Shown here piece after piece: positions 2,387 through 44,425 of a DNA stretch of 64,000 bases. Every line of letters starts with the position of its first letter. The stretch's first letter is position 1. The stretch lies in NCBI RefSeq assembly GCF_988242995.1, contig NZ_OZ547043.1, one strand, 5' to 3'. The notes beneath the pieces were generated by a model. The model saw only the letters and a program-made list of their open reading frames with translations, was not told the origin of the DNA and searched no databases. Made by a program: the position numbers and the translations under genes.

Positions 2387-3625
2387 ATGCCGCAACAAAA
2401 TTATCTGGATGAACTCACTCCGGCTTTTACGCCTTTACTGGCGATTAAAGAAGCCTCTCGCTGCTTATTATGTCATGACGCTCCCTGTAGTCAGGCTTGC
2501 CCGGCACAGAGCGATCCGGGGAAATTTATTCGCTCAATCTACTTTCGTAATTTTAAAGGCGCTGCCGAGACAATTCGTGAAAATAATGCCCTCGGTGCCG
2601 TTTGTGCCAGAGTGTGCCCGACGGAGAAATTATGCCAAAGCGGTTGTATCCGTGCCGGTGTTGATACTCCCATTGATATCGGTCGCTTACAGCGTTTTGT
2701 TACTGATTTTGAACAACAAACTGGGATGGAAATTTATCAGCCCGGTACTAAAACGCTCGGCAAAGTCGCCATTATTGGCGCGGGTCCTGCCGGATTGCAG
2801 GCCAGTGTGACACTGACAAACCAGGGTTATGACGTCACGATCTATGAGAAAGAAGCACAACCCGGTGGCTGGTTGCGTAACGGCATTCCGCAATTCCGGT
2901 TACCGCAATCAGTACTGGATGCAGAAATCGCCCGTATTGAAAAAATGGGCGTGACCATTAAATGCAATAACGAAATCGGTAACACACTCACCCTGGAGCA
3001 ACTGAAAGCGGAAAACCGCGCGGTACTGGTCACTGTGGGGTTATCGAGCGGTTCGGGGCTACCACTGTTTGAGCATAGCGACGTTGAGATTGCCGTCGAC
3101 TTCTTGCAACGTGCACGACAGGCGCAAGGCGATATCAGCATTCCACAAAGCGCATTAATTATCGGCGGCGGTGATGTCGCGATGGACGTAGCCAGCACGC
3201 TGAAAGTTCTCGGCTGTCAGGCAGTAACTTGCGTAGCGCGTGAAGAGTTAGATGAGTTTCCGGCAAGCGAAAAAGAGTTTGCCAGCGCCCGGGAGCTGGG
3301 CGTTTCGATCATCGATGGATTCACGCCAGTAGCCGTGGAAGGCAATAAAGTCACGTTTAAGCATGTACGGTTACCGGGCGAACTGACGATGGCGGCAGAT
3401 AAAATTATTCTCGCCGTCGGTCAGCATGCCAGACTGGATGCCTTTGCGGAGTTAGAGCCGCAGCGTAACACCATCAATACACAAAATTACCAGACCCGCG
3501 ATCCGCAAGTCTTTGCTGCTGGCGATATTGTTGAGGGTGACAAAACCGTGGTCTATGCCGTGAAAACCGGGAAAGAAGCCGCCGAGGCGATTCATCACTA
3601 TTTAGAGGGAGCTTGCTCATGTTAA
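2387..3625 (+). CDS. preT: NAD-dependent dihydropyrimidine dehydrogenase subunit PreT
   Basis: 412-aa ORF with Fe-S cysteine clusters and GAGPAG dinucleotide-binding motif; overlaps preA start. Confidence 0.9.
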
Positions 3626-4854
3626 CGAAAGATCTTTCGATTACTTTTTGCGGCGTGAAGTTTCCCAATCCGTTCTGCCTCTCTTCTTCGCCTGTAGGCA
3701 ACTGCTATGAGATGTGTGCCAAAGCCTACGACACAGGTTGGGGCGGCGTGGTGTTTAAAACGATCGGCTTTTTTATCGCCAACGAAGTCTCGCCGCGTTT
3801 TGATCATCTGGTGAAAGAAGATACCGGTTTTATCGGCTTCAAAAATATGGAGCAGATTGCTGAACATCCGTTGGAAGAGAATCTGGCCGCCCTGCGTCGG
3901 CTGAAGGAAGATTACCCGGACAAAGTATTGATCGCTTCGATCATGGGGGAAAATGAGCAGCAATGGGAGGAGCTGGCGCGCCTGGTGCAAGAAGCTGGCG
4001 CGGATATGATCGAGTGTAACTTCTCCTGTCCGCAAATGACTTCTCATGCGATGGGTAGCGATGTCGGGCAAAGCCCGGAGCTGGTCGAAAAATATTGTCG
4101 GGCAGTGAAACGCGGTTCTACGCTGCCGATGCTGGCGAAGATGACGCCGAATATCGGTGATATGTGCGAAGTGGCGCTGGCGGCGAAGCGCGGCGGCGCA
4201 GATGGCATTGCGGCGATTAACACCGTTAAATCCATCACCAATATCGATCTTAATCAGAAAATCGGTATGCCGATCGTTAACGGTAAATCGAGTATTTCCG
4301 GATATTCCGGTAAAGCGGTAAAACCGATCGCCCTGCGCTTCATTCAGCAAATGCGTACCCATCCAGAGCTGCGCGATTTCCCGATCAGCGGTATTGGCGG
4401 TATTGAAACCTGGGAAGATGCGGCGGAGTTTTTATTGCTCGGCGCAGCAACGTTACAGGTGACCACCGGCATTATGCAGTACGGGTATCGGATAGTGGAA
4501 GATATGGCGAGCGGATTGTCGCATTATCTCGCCGATCAGGGATTTGATTCGTTGCAGGATATGGTAGGTCTGGCGAATCACAATATTGTTCCGGCGGAAG
4601 ATTTAGACCGCAGTTATATTGTCTATCCCAACATCAACCTCGATAAATGTGTTGGCTGTGGACGCTGTTATATTTCCTGTTACGACGGCGGTCACCAGGC
4701 GATGGAATGGAGCGAGAAAACCCGTACACCGCATTGTAATACCGAGAAATGTGTTGGTTGCCTGCTTTGTGGTCACGTCTGCCCGGTGGGTTGTATTGAT
4801 CTCGGAGAAGTGAAGTTTAAGAAGGGAGAGAAAGAACACCCGGTAACGTTGTAA
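3619..4854 (+). CDS. preA: NAD-dependent dihydropyrimidine dehydrogenase subunit PreA
   Basis: 411-aa product from ATG at 3619 (the listed ORF starts 2 codons upstream at TTG); DHODH-like TIM barrel plus C-terminal 4Fe-4S ferredoxin cysteines. Confidence 0.9.
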
Positions 4855-4924
4855 AACCAGAGACGCATCCGGCATTTGGCACCGATTGCCGGATGCAGCG
4901 CATCCGGCAATACCCACATTCACA

Positions 4925-20968: not shown

Positions 20969-21023
20969 CAATGTTGCCGGATTCGACGCTTGACCGCGTC
21001 TTATCCGGCTCATAACTCGCGCA

Positions 21024-25554: not shown

Positions 25555-26493
25555 TTAACCCGCGAGACGCTGGTATTCTTTGGCAATTTCACTCGCCAGA
25601 ATGGCGTTGTTGAACACCAGTTGGATGTTGGATTTCAGGCTGTCACCGCCAGTCAGTTCAGCAACACGAGCCAGCAGGAACGGTGTGCTTTCTTTACCAA
25701 TAACGCCCTGCTCTTCGGCTTCTGCCACTGCCTGATCAATCGCAGCGTTAATGGTCTGTTCCGGCATCGCAAACTGTTCCGGGATCGGGTTCGCTACCAC
25801 GAGGCCACCGTTCAGCCCGCTTTGCCATTTCACCGCCATTGCACGGGCAATTTCGCTGGCGCTGTCGAGACGAATGCTGACGTCAAACGGGCTGGTGCGG
25901 CAGAAAAACGCAGGCAGCGCTTTGGTCTGATAGCCAATTAGTGGCACACCGAAGGTTTCTAAATATTCTGTTGTTAATCCTAAATCGAGAATAGATTTCG
26001 CCCCGGCACAAACAACGGTGACATTAGTATTTGCCAGTTCTTGCAAATCGGCAGAAATATCGAAGGTATGTTCCGCCCCGCGATGCACACCACCAATTCC
26101 CCCGGTGGCAAATACTTTAATTCCGGCAAGCGCCGCAATAATCATCGTTGAAGCCACAGTGGTTGCGCCATTTTTTCCGGCGGCAACAACAAAAGGTAAA
26201 TCGCGACGACTAACTTTGGTCACGTTATGCCCTTCGCGACCCAGTAATTCAATTTCTTCTTTGCTTAAACCCACTTTCATCACGCCGCCAATAATGGCGA
26301 TAGTGGCAGGTACAGCGCCCTGTTTACGAATAGTTTCTTCAACTTCAATTGCGGTCTGGGCATTTTGTGGGAACGGCATCCCGTGAGAAATAATGGTCGA
26401 TTCCAGCGCCACAACCGGTTTTTTGTTTTTTAAAGCGTCCTGCACTTCCGGGGAAATTTGTAATAATTCAGGGGAAATTTTTAATTCAGACAT
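25555..26493 (-). CDS. psuG: pseudouridine-5'-phosphate glycosidase
   Basis: 312-aa ORF; recognised PsuG sequence; overlaps psuK stop. Confidence 0.9.
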   Translation of the reverse strand: MSELKISPELLQISPEVQDALKNKKPVVALESTIISHGMPFPQNAQTAIEVEETIRKQGAVPATIAIIGGVMKVGLSKEEIELLGREGHNVTKVSRRDLPFVVAAGKNGATTVASTMIIAALAGIKVFATGGIGGVHRGAEHTFDISADLQELANTNVTVVCAGAKSILDLGLTTEYLETFGVPLIGYQTKALPAFFCRTSPFDVSIRLDSASEIARAMAVKWQSGLNGGLVVANPIPEQFAMPEQTINAAIDQAVAEAEEQGVIGKESTPFLLARVAELTGGDSLKSNIQLVFNNAILASEIAKEYQRLAG

Positions 26494-27422
26494 TCTGCGT
26501 TCTCCACTAACGATATAACGTTGGCAATCGATAAATCGGGGTTATTGGTGTATTCACAGGAGAGCGCCATTGACGAACATCCCTGTGCGAAACGAACAGA
26601 TTCGGCAAACGGCATTCCGTCTACCCAACACGAAGCAAGTCCCGCCATCATGGCATCGCCCGCTCCGGTAACATTAATGACATTGGTTTTGATCGGCGCA
26701 GACCAACCATTTTCACCGCTGATATCACTGTAATAAACGCCGTCGCCGCCCATGCTCAATACCAGTCGGTTCAGGCCATGTTGATGGAACCAGGCAGCAA
26801 CTATTGCCACATCTTCACGCCCTGACAAAGCAATCCCACTCAGGGTTTCCGCTTCAAGGCGGTTTGGCTTCAGGGTGTGGATCTGATTTAGACGGTCGCG
26901 CACTTTGACACATTTCCATGCCGAAACCGGATCGACAAATACGGGTACGTTGGCGGCATTATCCAGAATCCATGCCAGTGCCTCTTCACTGATATTACAG
27001 TCCGCGACAATGACCTTTGCCCTCTGAATAAATTCACAGTGCTGTGCGAGATATTCAGCTGTAATAGCGTTGCTAATATTCATGTCATTTATAGCAACCA
27101 GCATTTCACCGGTATTATCGAGTAATGATAAATAGCTCGACGTATTTTCTCCCGGCACAATCAGGCATTTATCGACATAAACGCCAGATTGATTGGTTTG
27201 CGTTAGCAGCGATTGACCATAAAAATCACTGCCTACTGCGCTCAGTAGCCAGGCTTTGTTACCCAGCAACGCCAGGTTTTGTGCAATATTTCGCCCGACT
27301 CCACCAGGCGTAAATTTTATTTTACCTGGATTTGAATCCGCATAATTTAATGATTCATGTGAATATCCGGCGATATCAATATTCGCCGAACCTATAATTA
27401 CGACATAATCCTTTTCGCGCAT
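26481..27422 (-). CDS. psuK: pseudouridine kinase (PfkB family)
   Basis: 313-aa ORF; ribokinase-like GAGD motif. Confidence 0.88.
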   Translation of the reverse strand: MREKDYVVIIGSANIDIAGYSHESLNYADSNPGKIKFTPGGVGRNIAQNLALLGNKAWLLSAVGSDFYGQSLLTQTNQSGVYVDKCLIVPGENTSSYLSLLDNTGEMLVAINDMNISNAITAEYLAQHCEFIQRAKVIVADCNISEEALAWILDNAANVPVFVDPVSAWKCVKVRDRLNQIHTLKPNRLEAETLSGIALSGREDVAIVAAWFHQHGLNRLVLSMGGDGVYYSDISGENGWSAPIKTNVINVTGAGDAMMAGLASCWVDGMPFAESVRFAQGCSSMALSCEYTNNPDLSIANVISLVENAECLN

Positions 27423-29553: not shown

Positions 29554-30492
29554 TCAGTTAAAAGGTTGTAAGTCGACGCGCGCCATCATTGCGGCCAACT
29601 GCGGACGATCGGTAATACCCACATTGCTTTGACTTACCGCCAGGGCTGCAACAGCTGTCGCCAGACGCAGTGTGTGTTCACTGGATTCACGCATCAGCAA
29701 GCCATAAATCAGGCCACCAACCATAGAATCCCCTGCGCCAACGGTGCTTACGACATCGACTGACGGTGGTTTGGCGATCCATTCGCCGGAGGCATTAACC
29801 CAAAGCGCGCCTTCGGCACCCAGTGAAATAACGACATGCGCGATACCTTGTTCACGCAGCGCATGCGCAGCTTCAATCACATCTTTCATTTCAGGCAGTT
29901 TACGGCCCGCCCAGATTTCCAGCTCGCGGCGGTTAGGTTTCACCAGCCACGGTGCCGCTTTCAAACCTGCCACTAACGCTTCACGGCTACTATCAAAGAT
30001 AATGCAAGGACACTGACTACGCAGGCGAGTCATCCAGTCGGTGAACGCTTCCGGGCTGACGCCTGACGGTAAGCTTCCGCTGACACAGACCATATCGAAC
30101 TGACCGAGCCAGCTCAGAGAATCAGTCACAAAGCGTTCCCAGTCGGCGGGGGTAACTTCAAAACCCGAGAAGTTGAAGTCGGTCACTTCGCCGTCTTTTT
30201 CCGTCAGCTTAACGTTAATTCGGGTGCGCCCCTGTACAACCTGGAAACGGTTGGCAATGCCCAGCTCGCTGAACAGTTGCTGAAAACCATCCTGATTGTC
30301 TTTACCGAGGAAGCCGCCAACGGTGACATCAATTCCCAGGTCTTTTAATACTTTGGCCACGTTGATGCCTTTACCCGCCGCATGCAGACCGGTGGTTTTC
30401 ACCAGGTTCACTTCGCCGCGTTCAATTTCCGGGCAGAAACCAACAAGGTCATAAGCCGGATTAAGGGTGATAGTAGCAACACGTCTGCTCAT
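29554..30492 (-). CDS. fruK: 1-phosphofructokinase
   Basis: 312-aa ORF; PfkB family; between fruB and fruA. Confidence 0.92.
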   Translation of the reverse strand: MSRRVATITLNPAYDLVGFCPEIERGEVNLVKTTGLHAAGKGINVAKVLKDLGIDVTVGGFLGKDNQDGFQQLFSELGIANRFQVVQGRTRINVKLTEKDGEVTDFNFSGFEVTPADWERFVTDSLSWLGQFDMVCVSGSLPSGVSPEAFTDWMTRLRSQCPCIIFDSSREALVAGLKAAPWLVKPNRRELEIWAGRKLPEMKDVIEAAHALREQGIAHVVISLGAEGALWVNASGEWIAKPPSVDVVSTVGAGDSMVGGLIYGLLMRESSEHTLRLATAVAALAVSQSNVGITDRPQLAAMMARVDLQPFN

Positions 30493-31622
30493 TATGCGCC
30501 CTCCCCAAGACCAGCAGCGATAGCGTCGCCGATTGCTTTCAGCGCCTGTTCAGCATCTGCACCCTGGGCGGTAAAGCGTAGGCGATGACCTTTCTTAACG
30601 CCAAGTGCCACAACTTTCATCAGACTACGTCCGTTTGCCGGTTTGCCGGTGCCATCAAGGTTTGTCACGGTAATATCACTGTTAAATTGTTTAATGGTAT
30701 TGACCAGCATGGTACCTGGACGAGCATGCAGGCCGTGTTCATTGCGCACCACAAACTCCGCGCTTAACACGTCGTCGGTCGGCGCATCATCGCTGGTCAG
30801 CAACGCCAGCAACGTTGCCGCATCCGCTTTCAGCAAGCGGTCAGCTTTATTGTCGAGTAACAAATCAGCGAGACGCTTTAGAACCGCAATGGGCTGATCG
30901 TCATTCATCGCCACACTCACCAGCATGGCTGCCGTTTCGCCGTCCACATCAAAAGCATTTGCCGCACGGCTTACCGCAATCGCGCTACGCAGATTGCCTT
31001 CGGCACTATCGCTCAGCCAGATACCCTGTCCGAGGTTCAGCGGTTGTTCATTGATGGCTTTGGTGACGAAAGTGGCGTCAACTGCCCCCGCCTCTTTCAG
31101 ACGAGCAGCGTTCAGCGCCTGAAGAGTCAGCAGATCGCTGGCGACGATATCCAGCGTCAGCATTTCGTTGTCGAGCTTCAGCTGCTCACTCTGCTTTTCG
31201 CCCATCAGCAATGCGCGAAGTTCTTCTGCTGTTGTTGCTGACTTCAGTTGTTCAGCAACGGAATCATCGCTCAGTACGTGGGTCAGCTGGCGTAGCAGGC
31301 CCAGATGTTCATCCGAGCTGGCAGCAATACCGATCGCCACGTACGCTACCTGGCCGTCACCCCAGGTGACGCCTTCCGGGAACTGAAATACCTGAACGCC
31401 GGTTTTCAGCACCTGATCGCGGGTGTCGGTAGTGCCGTGTGGAATAGCAATACCATTGCCGAGGAACGTAGAGGTTTGCTGTTCGCGCGCCAGCATGCCA
31501 TTGACGTAGCCTTCAGCTACATTACCGGCCTGCACCAGCGCCGCAGCGACCTGGCGAATCGCCTCTTCTTTGTCTCCGGCCTTTTCGCCCGGATGGATGT
31601 CCTGTACGGATAACTGGAACAT
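30492..31622 (-). CDS. fruB: PTS fructose-specific EIIA/FPr (diphosphoryl transfer protein)
   Basis: 376-aa ORF; C-terminal HPr-like domain (…HGLHARP…). Confidence 0.92.
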
Positions 31623-31989: not shown

Positions 31990-33171
31990 ATGCATAACTC
32001 CCCCGCAGTCTCCAGCGCGAAATCGTTTGATCTGACCTCGACGGCGTTTTTAATCGTTGCCTTTCTCACCGGTATTGCGGGCGCTCTGCAAACCCCGACA
32101 CTCAGTATTTTTCTTACCGATGAAGTACATGCCCGTCCGGCGATGGTGGGATTCTTCTTTACCGGCAGCGCTGTCATTGGGATTCTGGTGAGTCAGTTTC
32201 TCGCCGGGCGCTCTGATAAGCGCGGCGATCGCAAATCGCTGATTGTCTTTTGCTGCCTGTTAGGCGTGCTGGCCTGCACTCTTTTTGCCTGGAATCGCAA
32301 CTACTTTGTTTTGCTATTCGTTGGCGTCTTTCTTAGCAGCTTTGGCTCGACTGCTAACCCGCAAATGTTTGCCCTCGCCCGTGAACATGCTGACAAAACC
32401 GGACGTGAAGCGGTGATGTTCAGCTCTTTTTTACGCGCTCAGGTTTCACTGGCATGGGTCATTGGCCCGCCGCTGGCTTATGCCTTAGCGATGGGTTTCA
32501 GCTTTACAGTAATGTATCTGAGCGCAGCGGTAGCGTTTATTGTTTGCGGCGTGATGGTGTGGCTGTTTTTACCGTCGATGCAAAAAGAACTTCCACTGGC
32601 GACCGGCACGGTTGAAGCGCCGCGCCGTAACCGTCGCGATACGCTGCTGCTGTTTGTCATTTGTACATTGATGTGGGGCTCGAACAGCCTGTACATCATC
32701 AACATGCCGCTATTTATTATCAACGAACTGCATCTTCCCGAGAAACTGGCCGGTGTGATGATGGGAACCGCCGCCGGGCTGGAAATCCCGACCATGTTGA
32801 TTGCCGGATATTTCGCCAAACGTCTGGGTAAGCGTTTCTTAATGCGCGTTGCTGCCGTGGGTGGCGTCTGTTTTTACGCAGGAATGCTGATGGCGCATTC
32901 ACCTGTCATTCTGTTGGGCTTGCAGCTGCTTAATGCTATTTTTATTGGCATTCTGGGCGGCATCGGGATGCTCTATTTTCAGGATTTGATGCCCGGTCAG
33001 GCAGGTTCAGCCACCACGCTCTATACCAACACGTCGCGCGTGGGCTGGATCATCGCAGGATCAGTGGCGGGCATCGTCGCCGAGATCTGGAATTATCACG
33101 CTGTGTTCTGGTTCGCGATGGTGATGATTATCGCCACTCTGTTTTGCTTACTGCGGATTAAAGATGTTTAA
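31990..33171 (+). CDS. setB: sugar efflux transporter (MFS)
   Basis: 393-aa 12-TM ORF; recognised SetB sequence. Confidence 0.88.
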
Positions 33172-33422
33172 GGCGCGGTCAGCATTTCCAGATCGATAAG
33201 CCAGGTCATTGCCTGCTGACGCGAGTTACCGCACATTTCAGCGCTGGCTTGTAAGCCCGCACAAACTTTCGGTCGCAGTGGCGAGGTGAAAATTTTACAG
33301 CGTTGCTGTTCATCAAGCTGAATGCAGGGCGTATTGGCGGGCTTGCCATCTGGCATACCGGGAATAGGGCTGGAAATTGAAGGGGCAGTGCAACACGCCC
33401 CGCAACCCGGACGGCATTCCAT
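33168..33422 (-). CDS. yeiW: cysteine-rich UPF0153 protein YeiW
   Basis: 84-aa product from internal Met ([11 protein letters not shown]…); the listed 128-aa ORF is an upstream extension; 3' end overlaps setB by 4 nt. Confidence 0.75.
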
Positions 33423-33576
33423 ACGTTGTTCTCTTAAGGTTAACCACCGGATTGATGAGCGCGCACAGTACCACCTTTTTTGCACCAGCAAAAGTGCGAA
33501 TACCACTTGCCCGAAAGGCCCGTCGCGAGTACTTTGTCGCGATATTTTTGACATTTTCGACTACAGGAATTTTTCG

Positions 33577-40409: not shown

Positions 40410-40490
40410 GGTGTGCTTACGTCCCTTATTATTCATAGTGAAAGCATGCCGGATTGCGGCTAATGATGAGTAAAAGGAAATCCGTTGCAG

Positions 40491-42305
40491 ATGATTGTGC
40501 GCATACTGCTGCTGTTTATCGCTCTGTTCACCTTCGGTGCGCAGGCGCAGGCTATCAAGGAAAGCTATGCCTTTGCCGTGCTGGGCGAACCCCGGTACGC
40601 GTTTAATTTCAACCATTTTGATTATGTGAACCCCGCGGCGCCAAAAGGTGGGCAGATAACGTTGTCAGCCCTCGGCACCTTCGATAATTTCAACCGCTAT
40701 GCACTGCGCGGCAACCCGGGCGCACGCACCGAGCAGCTGTACGACACGCTATTTACGACTTCCGATGACGAACCAGGCAGTTATTACCCGCTGATTGCTG
40801 AAAGCGCACGCTATGCTGACGATTATTCCTGGGTGGAGGTCGCTATTAATCCGCGCGCCCGTTTTCATGATGGTTCTCCCATTACTGCCCGCGATGTAGA
40901 GTTTACTTTTCAAAAATTTATGACCGAAGGCGTGCCGCAATTTCGTCTGGTCTACAAAGGCACCACCGTCAAAGCCATTGCGCCGTTAACCGTGCGCATT
41001 GAGTTAGCTAAACCCGGCAAAGAAGATATGCTGAGTCTGTTTTCGCTGCCGGTATTTCCAGAAAAGTACTGGAAGAATCACAAACTTAGCGACCCGCTCG
41101 CCACGCCTCCGCTTGCCAGTGGTCCGTACCGAATTACGTCCTGGAAAATGGGGCAAAATATTGTCTATTCCCGCGTGAAAGATTACTGGGCAGCAAACTT
41201 ACCGGTAAACCGTGGACGCTGGAATTTCGACACCATTCGCTACGATTATTACCTCGATGATAATGTCGCCTTTGAAGCGTTTAAAGCCGGTGCCTTTGAT
41301 TTGCGTATGGAAAACGACGCCAAAAACTGGGCCACGCGCTATACCGGTAAAAATTTCGATAAAAAATACATCATCAAAGATGAGCAAAAGAACGAATCAG
41401 CCCAGGATACGCGCTGGCTGGCGTTTAATATCCAACGTCCGGTATTCAGCGATCGCCGGGTGCGGGAAGCAATCACTCTCGCCTTTGACTTTGAATGGAT
41501 GAACAAAGCGTTGTTTTACAATGCCTGGAGTCGCACGAACAGTTATTTTCAGAATACCGAATACGCGGCCAGAAATTACCCCGACGCCGCGGAGCTGGTG
41601 CTTCTGGCACCAATGAAAAAAGATCTACCGCCAGAAGTCTTCACGCAAATCTACCAGCCGCCGGTATCCAAAGGCGATGGCTACGATCGTGACAACCTGT
41701 TAAAAGCCGACAAACTTCTCAACGAAGCGGGCTGGGTGCTGAAGGGTCAGCAACGCGTAAATGCCACAACGGGTCAGCCGCTCAGCTTTGAGTTATTGCT
41801 ACCTTCGAGCAGCAATAGTCAGTGGGTATTGCCGTTCCAGCACAGCCTGCAACGGCTGGGTATCAACATGGACATTCGCAAAGTGGATAACTCGCAAATC
41901 ACCAACCGCATGCGCAGTCGCGACTATGACATGATGCCGCGCCTATGGCGGGCGATGCCGTGGCCCAGTTCCGATTTACAGATTTCCTGGTCATCGGAAT
42001 ATATCAATTCCACTTATAATGCCCCCGGCGTGCAAAGTCCGGTTATCGACTCGCTGATCAACCAAATTATTGCCGCGCAGGGAAATAAAGAAAAATTACT
42101 GCCGTTGGGGCGAGCACTGGATCGCGTATTAACGTGGAATTATTACATGCTGCCAATGTGGTACATGGCGGAAGACCGTCTCGCCTGGTGGGATAAATTC
42201 TCCCAACCCGCTGTACGCCCTGTTTACAGCCTGGGTATCGATACCTGGTGGTATGACGTTAATAAAGCGGCCAAACTGCCGTCAGCCAGACAACAGGGAG
42301 AGTAG
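40491..42305 (+). CDS. yejA: ABC transporter periplasmic substrate-binding protein (microcin C / oligopeptide family)
   Basis: 604-aa product from internal ATG (MIVRILLLF…); signal peptide; heads the yejABEF operon. Confidence 0.88.
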
Positions 42306-43400
42306 ATGGGCGCTTATCTGATTCGCCGTCTGTTGCTGGTGATCCCAACGTTATGGGCGATTATCACTATCAACTTTTTCATCGTGCAAATTGCGCCTGG
42401 CGGTCCGGTCGACCAGGCCATCGCCGCCATTGAGTTTGGTAATGCCGGAGTATTACCCGGCGCAGGCGGTGAAGGTGTTCGCGCCAGCCATGCGCAAACG
42501 GGCGTCGGCAATATCAGCGACAGTAATTACCGTGGCGGACGCGGATTAGATCCAGAAGTGATCGCCGAGATCACTCATCGCTACGGTTTCGATAAGCCGA
42601 TCCACGAACGTTACTTCAAAATGCTCTGGGACTACATCCGCTTTGATTTTGGCGATAGCCTGTTTCGCAGCGCCTCGGTGCTGACGCTGATTAAAGACAG
42701 TCTGCCGGTTTCCATCACCCTCGGATTGTGGAGCACGCTGATTATCTATCTGGTGTCGATTCCGTTAGGCATTCGCAAAGCTGTTTATAATGGGAGCCGC
42801 TTTGACGTCTGGAGTAGCGCATTTATCATCATCGGCTACGCCATTCCGGCCTTTTTGTTTGCCATCCTGCTGATTGTCTTCTTCGCGGGCGGCAGCTATT
42901 TCGACCTGTTCCCTCTACGCGGCCTGGTTTCCGCTAACTTTGATTCGCTGCCGTGGTATCAGAAAATCACCGATTATCTGTGGCATATCACGCTGCCGGT
43001 GCTGGCGACAGTGATTGGCGGCTTTGCGGCGCTGACCATGCTGACAAAAAACTCATTCCTTGATGAAGTGCGCAAGCAATACGTGGTGACCGCCCGTGCG
43101 AAAGGGGTAAGTGAAAAAAATATTCTCTGGAAACATGTGTTCCGCAACGCCATGCTGCTGGTGATTGCCGGTTTTCCGGCGACGTTTATCAGCATGTTTT
43201 TTACCGGCTCGCTGCTGATTGAAGTAATGTTTTCGCTCAATGGTCTTGGCTTACTGGGCTACGAAGCGACCGTCTCGCGCGATTATCCTGTAATGTTTGG
43301 TACTTTGTATATTTTCACCCTGATTGGCCTGCTGCTGAATATTGTCAGTGATATCAGCTATACGCTGGTCGATCCGCGTATAGATTTTGAGGGACGTTAA
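42306..43400 (+). CDS. yejB: ABC transporter permease
   Basis: 364-aa membrane ORF; operon position. Confidence 0.88.
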
Positions 43401-44425
43401 TGTCGCGACTCAGCCCCGTCAATCAGGCCCGTTGGGCGCGTTTTCGTCATAACCGTCGCGGCTACTGGTCGTTATGGATTTTCCTCGTCTTGTTTGGTTT
43501 GAGTTTGTGTTCTGAACTTATCGCCAACGATAAACCGTTGCTGGTGCGTTATGACGGCAGTTGGTATTTCCCGTTGTTGAAAAACTACAGCGAAAGCGAT
43601 TTTGGCGGTCCGCTGGCAAGTCAGGCTGATTATCAGGACCCGTGGCTGAAACAACGGCTGGAAAATAACGGCTGGGTACTGTGGGCACCGATTCGCTTTG
43701 GCGCTACCAGTATCAACTTTTCTACCGACAAGCCCTTCCCCTCCCCACCCTCCCGGCAAAACTGGCTGGGAACGGATGCCAATGGCGGCGATGTGCTGGC
43801 ACGTATTCTCTATGGCACGCGGATCTCAGTTCTGTTTGGCCTGATGCTGACCCTCTGCTCCAGCGTGATGGGCGTGCTGGCGGGGGCGCTACAAGGCTAT
43901 TACGGCGGTAAAGTCGATCTCTGGGGGCAACGTTTTATTGAAGTATGGTCGGGGATGCCGACGCTGTTTTTGATTATTTTACTTTCCAGCGTCGTACAGC
44001 CTAACTTCTGGTGGCTGCTGGCAATTACCGTCTTGTTTGGCTGGATGAGTCTGGTCGGCGTGGTGCGGGCGGAGTTTTTACGTACCCGTAATTTCGACTA
44101 CATCCGCGCGGCGCAGGCGCTTGGCGTCAGCGATCGCAGTATCATCCTGCGTCATATGTTGCCAAATGCCATGGTCGCTACCCTCACCTTTTTACCGTTT
44201 ATTTTATGTAGTTCGATAACCACCCTGACCTCACTCGATTTCCTCGGCTTCGGTCTGCCGCTCGGTTCACCGTCACTCGGCGAACTGCTGTTACAAGGGA
44301 AAAATAACCTTCAGGCCCCGTGGCTTGGGATCACCGCCTTCTTGTCGGTGGCGATATTGTTGTCTTTGCTGATCTTTATTGGTGAAGCCGTCCGCGACGC
44401 ATTTGATCCTAATAAGGCGGTGTAG
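43400..44425 (+). CDS. yejE: ABC transporter permease
   Basis: 341-aa membrane ORF; start overlaps yejB stop. Confidence 0.88.
   Translation: MSRLSPVNQARWARFRHNRRGYWSLWIFLVLFGLSLCSELIANDKPLLVRYDGSWYFPLLKNYSESDFGGPLASQADYQDPWLKQRLENNGWVLWAPIRFGATSINFSTDKPFPSPPSRQNWLGTDANGGDVLARILYGTRISVLFGLMLTLCSSVMGVLAGALQGYYGGKVDLWGQRFIEVWSGMPTLFLIILLSSVVQPNFWWLLAITVLFGWMSLVGVVRAEFLRTRNFDYIRAAQALGVSDRSIILRHMLPNAMVATLTFLPFILCSSITTLTSLDFLGFGLPLGSPSLGELLLQGKNNLQAPWLGITAFLSVAILLSLLIFIGEAVRDAFDPNKAV

Follow-up and report, generated by a model that had tools for sequence, protein, structure and literature searches.

Do the overlapping open reading frames (ORFs) at five gene junctions in a 64,000-nt stretch of DNA (hereafter the window; contig NZ_OZ547043.1 of RefSeq assembly GCF_988242995.1) mark genuine gene boundaries, and is the translation of the genes that share them coupled? 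An earlier note, made from the sequence alone, had read all five as ordinary translational coupling and recorded them only to explain why the coordinates on the ORF track overlap. Here we compare the junctions with curated annotation, with complete E. coli genomes and with related loci of other species, and weigh coupling against its alternatives.

The window is a segment of an E. coli chromosome, collinear with K-12 MG1655 from cdd to lapC. The RefSeq record of K-12 MG1655 (NC_000913.3, 2,230,000-2,300,000) served as reference annotation; of its coding sequences (CDSs) from cdd to lapC, 47 of 47 mapped gaplessly onto the window, every one an intact ORF that keeps its start and stop codons, at identities of 94.8-100%. 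The preTA stretch had a match in 5,424 of 5,426 complete E. coli genomes, and since the best of these matches reached 99.3% (strain ST2747) and most genomes fell at 95-99%, the window derives from an E. coli other than K-12. A table of all junctions in the core of the window contained exactly five overlaps—four between same-strand neighbours and one between convergent genes—and every overlap length equalled that in NC_000913.3. This comparison, which the earlier note had proposed as a check, upheld its coordinates, lengths and gene names, and the junction table returned the same five overlaps, none having been missed. Together, the K-12 mapping and the junction table indicate the overlapping ORF-track coordinates to be correct and expected, with no errors among them.

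Table 1. Genes, overlaps and initiation signals at the five junctions (positions refer to the window).
Feature	Position	Strand	Description
preT	2387..3625	+	412 aa, ends EGACSC-TAA; K-12 b2146 at 97.2% identity, no gaps; Pfam Fer4_20, Pyr_redox_2
preA	3619..4854	+	411 aa, ATG 3619; K-12 b2147; Pfam DHO_dh match from residue 6, profile position 2
preT/preA overlap	3619..3625	+	7 nt, ATGTTAA; sequence reading, junction table
preA Shine-Dalgarno	3605..3611	+	GAGGGAG, within last preT codons, 7 nt before ATG
Possible alternative preA start	3613..3615	+	In-frame TTG, two codons upstream of ATG; first start codon of mechanical ORF
psuK	26481..27422	-	313 aa; K-12 b2166; Pfam PfkB
psuG	25555..26493	-	312 aa; K-12 b2165; Pfam Indigoidine_A
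psuK/psuG overlap	26481..26493	-	13 nt, ATGTCTGAATTAA; sequence reading, junction table
psuG Shine-Dalgarno	26502..26505	-	GGAG, within psuK, 8 nt before ATG
fruB	30492..31622	-	376 aa; K-12 b2169; Pfam PTS_EIIA_2, PTS-HPr
fruK	29554..30492	-	312 aa; K-12 b2168
fruB/fruK overlap	30492..30492	-	1 nt (TAATG); sequence reading, junction table
fruK Shine-Dalgarno	30499..30506	-	GGGGAGGG, within fruB
setB	31990..33171	+	393 aa, MFS sugar exporter; K-12 b2170; Pfam MFS_1
yeiW	33168..33422	-	84 aa, CxxCxxCC cysteine-cluster protein; K-12 b4502; Pfam PF03692
setB/yeiW overlap	33168..33171	both	4 nt, TTAA; two TAA stops on opposite strands
yejB	42306..43400	+	364 aa, ABC transporter permease; K-12 b2178; Pfam BPD_transp_1
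yejE	43400..44425	+	341 aa, ABC transporter permease; K-12 b2179; Pfam BPD_transp_1, OppC_N
yejB/yejE overlap	43400..43400	+	1 nt (TAATG); sequence reading, junction table
yejE Shine-Dalgarno	43389..43394	+	GAGGGA, within yejB

With respect to their number, the overlaps are unexceptional. Four of the 32 same-strand pairs in the core overlap (12.5%) and seven (22%) are spaced at -8 to +6 nt, figures that match published ones: ~15% of same-strand pairs overlap in most groups of prokaryotes (PMC6728339), and 707 of 2,987 such pairs (24%) are spaced at -8 to +6 nt in E. coli (PMC10666635). The overlap count is therefore neither enriched nor depleted, and the word ‘ordinary’, as applied to these junctions before, fits the published frequencies. 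Further same-strand pairs nearly abut, namely sanA/yeiS (+2), nfo/yeiI (+2), yejA/yejB (0) and yejE/yejF (+1); the convergent genes yejF and yejG lie 3 nt apart. Overlaps of 4 nt form the commonest class (~45% of all overlaps), followed by those of 1 nt (~15%; PMC3887535). The junction table holds no 4-nt overlap between same-strand pairs in the window core, and its 7-nt and 13-nt overlaps, though in the same reading phase as those of 1 nt and 4 nt, fall in a rarer long tail.

All four same-strand downstream ATGs are preceded by a Shine-Dalgarno (SD) sequence that lies inside the upstream gene. SD strength, taken as the pairing energy with the 3' end of 16S rRNA (the anti-SD) and ranked against 6,380 intragenic 20-mers of the same genes, ranged from -6.1 to -11.9 kcal/mol, within the strongest 0-6% of these 20-mers. 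The SD of fruK was the most stable (-11.9 kcal/mol; 0 of 6,380 20-mers as strong), followed by those of preA (-7.7 kcal/mol; equalled by 1.3%), psuG (-6.4 kcal/mol; 3.7% equally strong) and yejE (-6.1 kcal/mol; matched by 5.7%). psuG, fruK and yejE cannot start further upstream, since no start codon separates the annotated ATG from the preceding in-frame stop, which in yejE lies 12 nt before the ATG. The crystal structure of E. coli PsuG (PDB 4GIJ) is built from the annotated start of psuG, and FruK is identical across residues 1-312 to PDB 9QV0, which was crystallised from the annotated N-terminus. The supplements of the TRAINSPOTTER N-terminomics study hold no entry for fruK, preA, psuG, yejE or yeiW.

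The start of preA called for separate treatment. The 3' end of preT reads GGA GCT TGC TCA TGT TAA, with the TAA at 3623-3625 and the preA ATG at 3619-3621, in the -1 frame relative to preT. INRI-seq, a cell-free method whose templates are synthetic transcript fragments comprising the start-surrounding region only, assigned 199.8 CPM to an in-frame TTG at position -6 of preA in two of five replicates, with no in-vivo Ribo-RET peak (PMC9825163, Table S3). So strong a peak on an isolated fragment shows that the site can function in the absence of coupling, and its assignment to the TTG rather than to the ATG makes the exact start a little uncertain. In-vivo use of the TTG at 3613 would add two residues to PreA and extend the overlap to 13 nt. 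The earlier note had named start codons other than the assigned ones as the finding that would overturn its reading; this in-vitro signal is the one such case, and it lengthens the overlap rather than removing it. At -6, most Enterobacteriaceae have TTG, Pseudocitrobacter has GTG, three Kluyvera ATG, one Citrobacter CTG and K. cryocrescens GTA. The last two bases of this codon double as the beginning of a conserved PreT cysteine codon, and at the remaining position three of the four possible bases give a canonical start, so this pattern is uninformative.

Other species are more informative about the start. A scan for the back-translated PreA motif GVKFPNPFC in one genome per species (GTDB representatives) returned 105 loci, in all of which (105/105, from Enterobacteriaceae to Firmicutes-type metagenome-assembled genomes, MAGs) the PreA frame opens with M-x-x-KDLS(I/V)xF, its first residue matching E. 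coli Met-1 in position. Many Firmicutes-type genomes have an in-frame stop just 2 to 5 codons ahead of this start. Given the retention of the Met-1 position and these close upstream stops, ATG 3619 represents the conserved preA start; the cross-species data thus favour it over the TTG, of which minor use is possible.

The same loci revealed how the junction itself varies. A PreT homologue lies upstream of PreA in every locus with sufficient contig reach, and adjoining PreT-type and PreA-type genes on the same strand—the features of a split dihydropyrimidine dehydrogenase (DPD)—occur in the window as well as in the related loci. Across the 97 species genomes that could be evaluated, which span several phyla, the stop-to-start spacing ranged without exception from -8 to +7 nt, and within these limits the junction adopts at least eight different states in addition to one in-frame fusion. 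A spacing of -7 with invariant ATGTTAA was found in 19 of 19 species genomes of Escherichia, Citrobacter, Pseudocitrobacter, Raoultella (MAG) and Aeromonas, and a spacing of +2 in four Kluyvera. Among Firmicutes-type MAGs the spacings were +1 (30 genomes), +2 (20), -1 (15), -8 (4), -4 (2), +6 (1) and +7 (1), while Myxococcota and related MAGs had -4 (as ATGA and TTGA), +1 and, in one Myxococcales MAG (L030), a continuous in-frame PreT-PreA ORF. By these comparisons, the exact overlap is lineage-specific and the tight spacing universal.

Within E. coli, 60-nt probes centred on the junctions matched in 5,413 of 5,426 genomes for preT/preA (4,931 of them at at least 99% identity), 5,413 for fruB/fruK, 5,358 for yejB/yejE, 4,694 for setB/yeiW and 4,110 for psuK/psuG. 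The shortfall of the last probe does not reflect gene loss, since a 1.9-kb psuKG query found 5,411 genomes. These fall into two classes, with 4,084 genomes at 95-99% and 1,193 at 80-90% identity, and a representative of the divergent class has an annotated overlap of likewise 13 nt. The psuKG genes of this divergent allele differ from those of the window at 15.4% of positions, yet ATGTCTGAATTAA and the SD are the same, with a single change in ~30 nt at the junction.

How might such junctions work? In a coupled pair, a ribosome ending the upstream gene would be released atop the next ribosome-binding site, where the ribosome or its 30S subunit could restart; passage of upstream ribosomes may also keep the downstream start site unfolded. 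Either way, the output of the second protein would be tied to that of the first. Free ribosomes can also load directly at the embedded SD, and their share is probably larger for the longer overlaps (-7 and -13). Local folds of 81 nt around the four junctions were no more stable than shuffled sequences (z = +1.58, +0.61, -0.40 and +0.04), and since local RNA structure at none of them exceeds the shuffled controls, re-initiation seems likelier than unfolding.

All four pairs are adjacent on the same strand and carry the downstream SD within the upstream gene, as coupled pairs do. PreT/PreA, a heterotetramer, and YejB/YejE, the permeases of one ABC transporter, fall in the class of heteromeric-complex subunits, and fruBKA and yejABEF are operons. 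For preTA, an operon has been stated, and its activity needs both genes (10.1101/820084). Subunits of heteromeric complexes are 4.5-fold overrepresented among pairs spaced at -8 to +10 nt, a range that has been taken as predictive (PMC10666635); preT/preA (-7), fruB/fruK (-1) and yejB/yejE (-1) lie within it, psuK/psuG (-13) outside. Coupling is most efficient at -4 to +3 nt and declines towards an overlap of 25 nt (-25; PMC12548453), which favours it for the two 1-nt overlaps. From the geometry and the embedded SDs, coupling is thus a reasonable proposal as the most likely mechanism at preT/preA, psuK/psuG, fruB/fruK and yejB/yejE, and to this extent the earlier reading holds. It is least certain for psuK/psuG, as coupling loses strength once overlaps exceed 4 nt and has vanished at 25 nt (PMC12548453). 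The literature yielded no paper testing any of the four junctions, including in a search specifically for fruB/fruK.

Several alternatives bear on whether the overlaps exist at all or serve another purpose. They could be annotation artefacts, the true downstream starts lying at later codons and the genes not overlapping. Genome start-codon calls are indeed sometimes wrong, and the RefSeq protein record of PreA has already reached version 4. However, the next in-frame candidates (codon 13 of preA, 17 of psuG, 28 of fruK and 31 of yejE) have weak SDs of -1.7 to -3.5 kcal/mol, and starting at any later candidate codon would remove conserved residues of the Pfam domains. The constancy of the PreA Met-1 position in the 105 loci, many of them bounded by the in-frame stop 2 to 5 codons upstream, likewise speaks against later starts, and the sole experimental hint at another preA start points upstream, to the TTG at -6, which would extend the overlap. 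We consider an artefact very unlikely. Even less credible is a programmed -1 frameshift at preT/preA that would yield a fused PreT-PreA protein resembling the single-chain animal DPD. The -1 frame of preA, the alignment of PreA with pig DPD (C-terminal half, starting at residue 532), and the in-frame fusion in the Myxococcales MAG would suit this idea. Against it, the 3596-3625 interval, which ends in the preT codons given above, contains no slippery heptamer of the form X XXY YYZ, no stable structure lies downstream (194 of 200 shuffled sequences fold better), the conserved preA ATG has its own SD, and relatives place the two genes in other frames, with gaps of +1 or +2 or overlaps of -8. For want of both heptamer and structure, the frameshift fusion was rejected.

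A further alternative accepts the overlaps and dispenses with coupling: the downstream genes would be loaded independently at their own strong SDs, and the shared bases would stem from drift of stop and start codons under neutral compaction. The strong SDs and unstructured initiation regions are compatible with this, as are the high initiation that INRI-seq recorded for preA with a synthetic fragment limited to the start region (PMC9825163), the de-novo initiation at one published overlapping pair, bioB/bioF (PMC6728339), and neutral mutation models, in which simulations by mutation only reproduce the observed distribution of overlap lengths without selective benefit (PMC3887535). The +2 gap of Kluyvera, where relatives have -7, shows the exact overlap not to be essential. 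On the other hand, preT-preA spacing has stayed within -8 to +7 nt in the 97 species genomes despite many independent changes of the junction, and four of five tested native overlapping pairs of E. coli are coupled (PMC6728339). The psuK/psuG block, with its one change in ~30 nt at 15% divergence, also argues against drift, though some of that conservation could follow from dual coding alone. On balance, we regard neutral compaction as possible, if rather unlikely. It is doubtful that the 7-nt and 13-nt overlaps act as conserved dual-coding control elements, be it by giving preA two starts (TTG 3613 and ATG 3619) or by a fixed, sub-maximal re-initiation that would tune the PreT:PreA and PsuK:PsuG ratios. 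Such a role, if true, would account for a 13-nt block that is unchanged at 15% divergence and a 7-nt block that is identical from Escherichia to Aeromonas.

Our preferred reading, to which we assign a probability of about 0.8, is that the five overlaps are genuine, conserved and already annotated short gene-boundary overlaps of the E. coli core genome, the four same-strand ones probably acting by translational coupling. The overlaps are already known; there is nothing new here.

Coupling does not extend to the fifth overlap, and on this point the earlier note overreached. setB and yeiW lie on opposite strands and have nothing but their stops in common, which makes translational coupling impossible; the palindromic TTAA contains both stop codons and no amino acid is dual-coded. 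At the level of RNA, each of the two transcripts would have to run into the other gene, which would generate overlapping antisense transcripts. On the plus strand, a simple consensus terminator scan picked out a hairpin with a T-run (33522-33543) past the start of yeiW; on the minus strand, it returned no candidate downstream of the yeiW stop (33168) inside setB. RNA-seq of MG1655 lists setB-yeiW, as well as yejF-yejG, among 165 convergent overlapping-transcript pairs, termed excludons (PMC12288877).

The significance of the overlaps is small and amounts to bookkeeping of overlapping ORF coordinates, in a window that, though not from K-12, retains K-12 gene boundaries exactly. They do matter for strain construction. 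Deletions or insertions at the same-strand junctions, such as a clean deletion of preT, psuK, fruB or yejB, remove the ribosome-binding site of the next gene and may alter its expression through lost coupling. The 3' ends of setB and yeiW cannot be manipulated independently.

The classic coupled pair is trpB/trpA. Also close to the junctions described here are hyfH/hyfI, astD/astB, ydbH/ynbE and menD/menH, for which coupling by termination-reinitiation was demonstrated (PMC6728339) and which are likewise same-strand operon neighbours with overlapping or abutting stop and start codons and an SD in the upstream CDS. The pairs of Huber et al. 2019 differ in that they were tested and have a 4-nt ATGA overlap, whereas ours overlap by 1, 1, 7 and 13 nt and we infer their coupling. 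The convergent excludons reported with ExcludonFinder (PMC12288877) resemble setB/yeiW, a pair on the MG1655 list whose genes converge without intergenic space; in the window, the comparison covered the sequence geometry of the pair, and reciprocal regulation of the two genes is putative. The animal single-chain DPD (PDB 1GT8/1H7W) has the same domains as the E. coli enzyme—Fer4_20 and FAD/NAD domains in PreT, DHO_dh and 4Fe-4S dicluster domains in PreA—but E. coli splits them between two genes, with the 7-nt overlap at the boundary. PreA aligns with residues 532-850 and 918-1002 of pig DPD, PreA residue 5 corresponding to DPD residue 532. By this alignment, the preT/preA boundary falls on a domain boundary of the animal enzyme; it is a fusion/fission point, at which the two genes are fused in one Myxococcales MAG.

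Within E. coli, psuKG (25555-27422 in the window) occurs as two deeply diverged allele classes, the first comprising 4,084 genomes with 95-99% identity to the window and the second 1,193 genomes with 80-90% identity. At the DNA level, 15.4% of positions differ between the window and a class-2 representative (L111 6001-7868), and the corresponding protein identities are 87.6% for PsuK and 97.8% for PsuG. Judged from these sequence comparisons, the pattern of divergence looks like an old recombination import with psuK at its centre. Separately, in a single genome (E. coli strain 167, NZ_CM132942.1; L109 1501-2424), an insertion sequence of the IS903B family lies precisely between psuK and psuG, splitting apart two genes that overlap in the normal arrangement.

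The convergent overlap of setB and yeiW is absent from some strains, since in E. coli EC18, for instance, yeiW is truncated and setB shortened. There, yeiW is a 90-nt fragment without its C-terminus (L110 2049-2138; 33168-33422 in the window), and setB measures 1,176 nt, i.e., it is 6 nt shorter. The 60-nt setB/yeiW junction probe found no match in ~730 genomes.

Inspecting the spacers revealed further length differences between strains. The preA-mglC spacer spans 70 nt in the window (4855-4924) as compared to 242 nt in K-12, and the yeiI-nupX spacer 55 nt (20969-21023) as compared to 106 nt, while the yeiS-preT interval of strain ST2747 (L002 2895-3212) is extended by 125 nt. Such intergenic differences are likely caused by insertions of repeat elements. 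As for nupX itself, only a 66-nt remnant is present in strain WP3-W18-ESBL-07 (L111 11148-11213), located between rihB and yeiI.

With respect to translation initiation, cell-free INRI-seq mapping reported an in-frame alternative yejA start at a TTG at -6 (45 CPM, 4/5 replicates; Table S3 of PMC9825163). This codon corresponds to window positions 40485-40487, 6 nt upstream of the ATG at 40491, and is also where yejA begins in the mechanical ORF list. The same table lists an out-of-frame psuK peak at an ATT at +13, with 171 CPM (PMC9825163).

Between tRNA-Pro(GGG) and yejO, the window carries a P4-like satellite or integrative element, an island of ~9 kb (54339-63460). Besides the features tabulated below, it encodes a helix-turn-helix regulator as well as Ash-family, Icd-like, SSB, ProQ/FinO and PerC-family proteins. 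The sole canonical 4-nt ATGA overlap of the window (57647-57650) falls inside this island, at the DUF4222/DUF927 gene pair. Coverage of window positions 40000-64000 reaches 80% or more in only 73 of the 5,426 genomes.

Coordinates of features in the island between tRNA-Pro(GGG) and yejO
Feature	Window position	Placement
tRNA-Pro(GGG)	54339-54415	one island border
Integrase gene	54622-55866	in island
DUF4222 gene	57363-57650	in island
DUF927 protein gene	57647-59782	in island

Beyond E. coli, the preTA junction of Aeromonas finlandensis (L055) is of the Enterobacteriaceae type, with an identical 7-nt overlap and 81.6% PreT identity, which suggests horizontal transfer. A junction of the Firmicutes type in a MAG labelled Gammaproteobacteria (L038) suggests either transfer or mis-binning. 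In the Myxococcales MAG CSMAG_262 (L030 1-2055), one uninterrupted frame spans PreT-like and PreA-like parts; this fused ORF comprises at least 685 aa and runs off the contig end. At other Myxococcota loci, PreT and PreA meet in a 4-nt ATGA or TTGA overlap, or at a +1 gap. The PreT-PreA ORF of CSMAG_262 is a bacterial single-chain form, resembling the dihydropyrimidine dehydrogenase (DPD) of animals.
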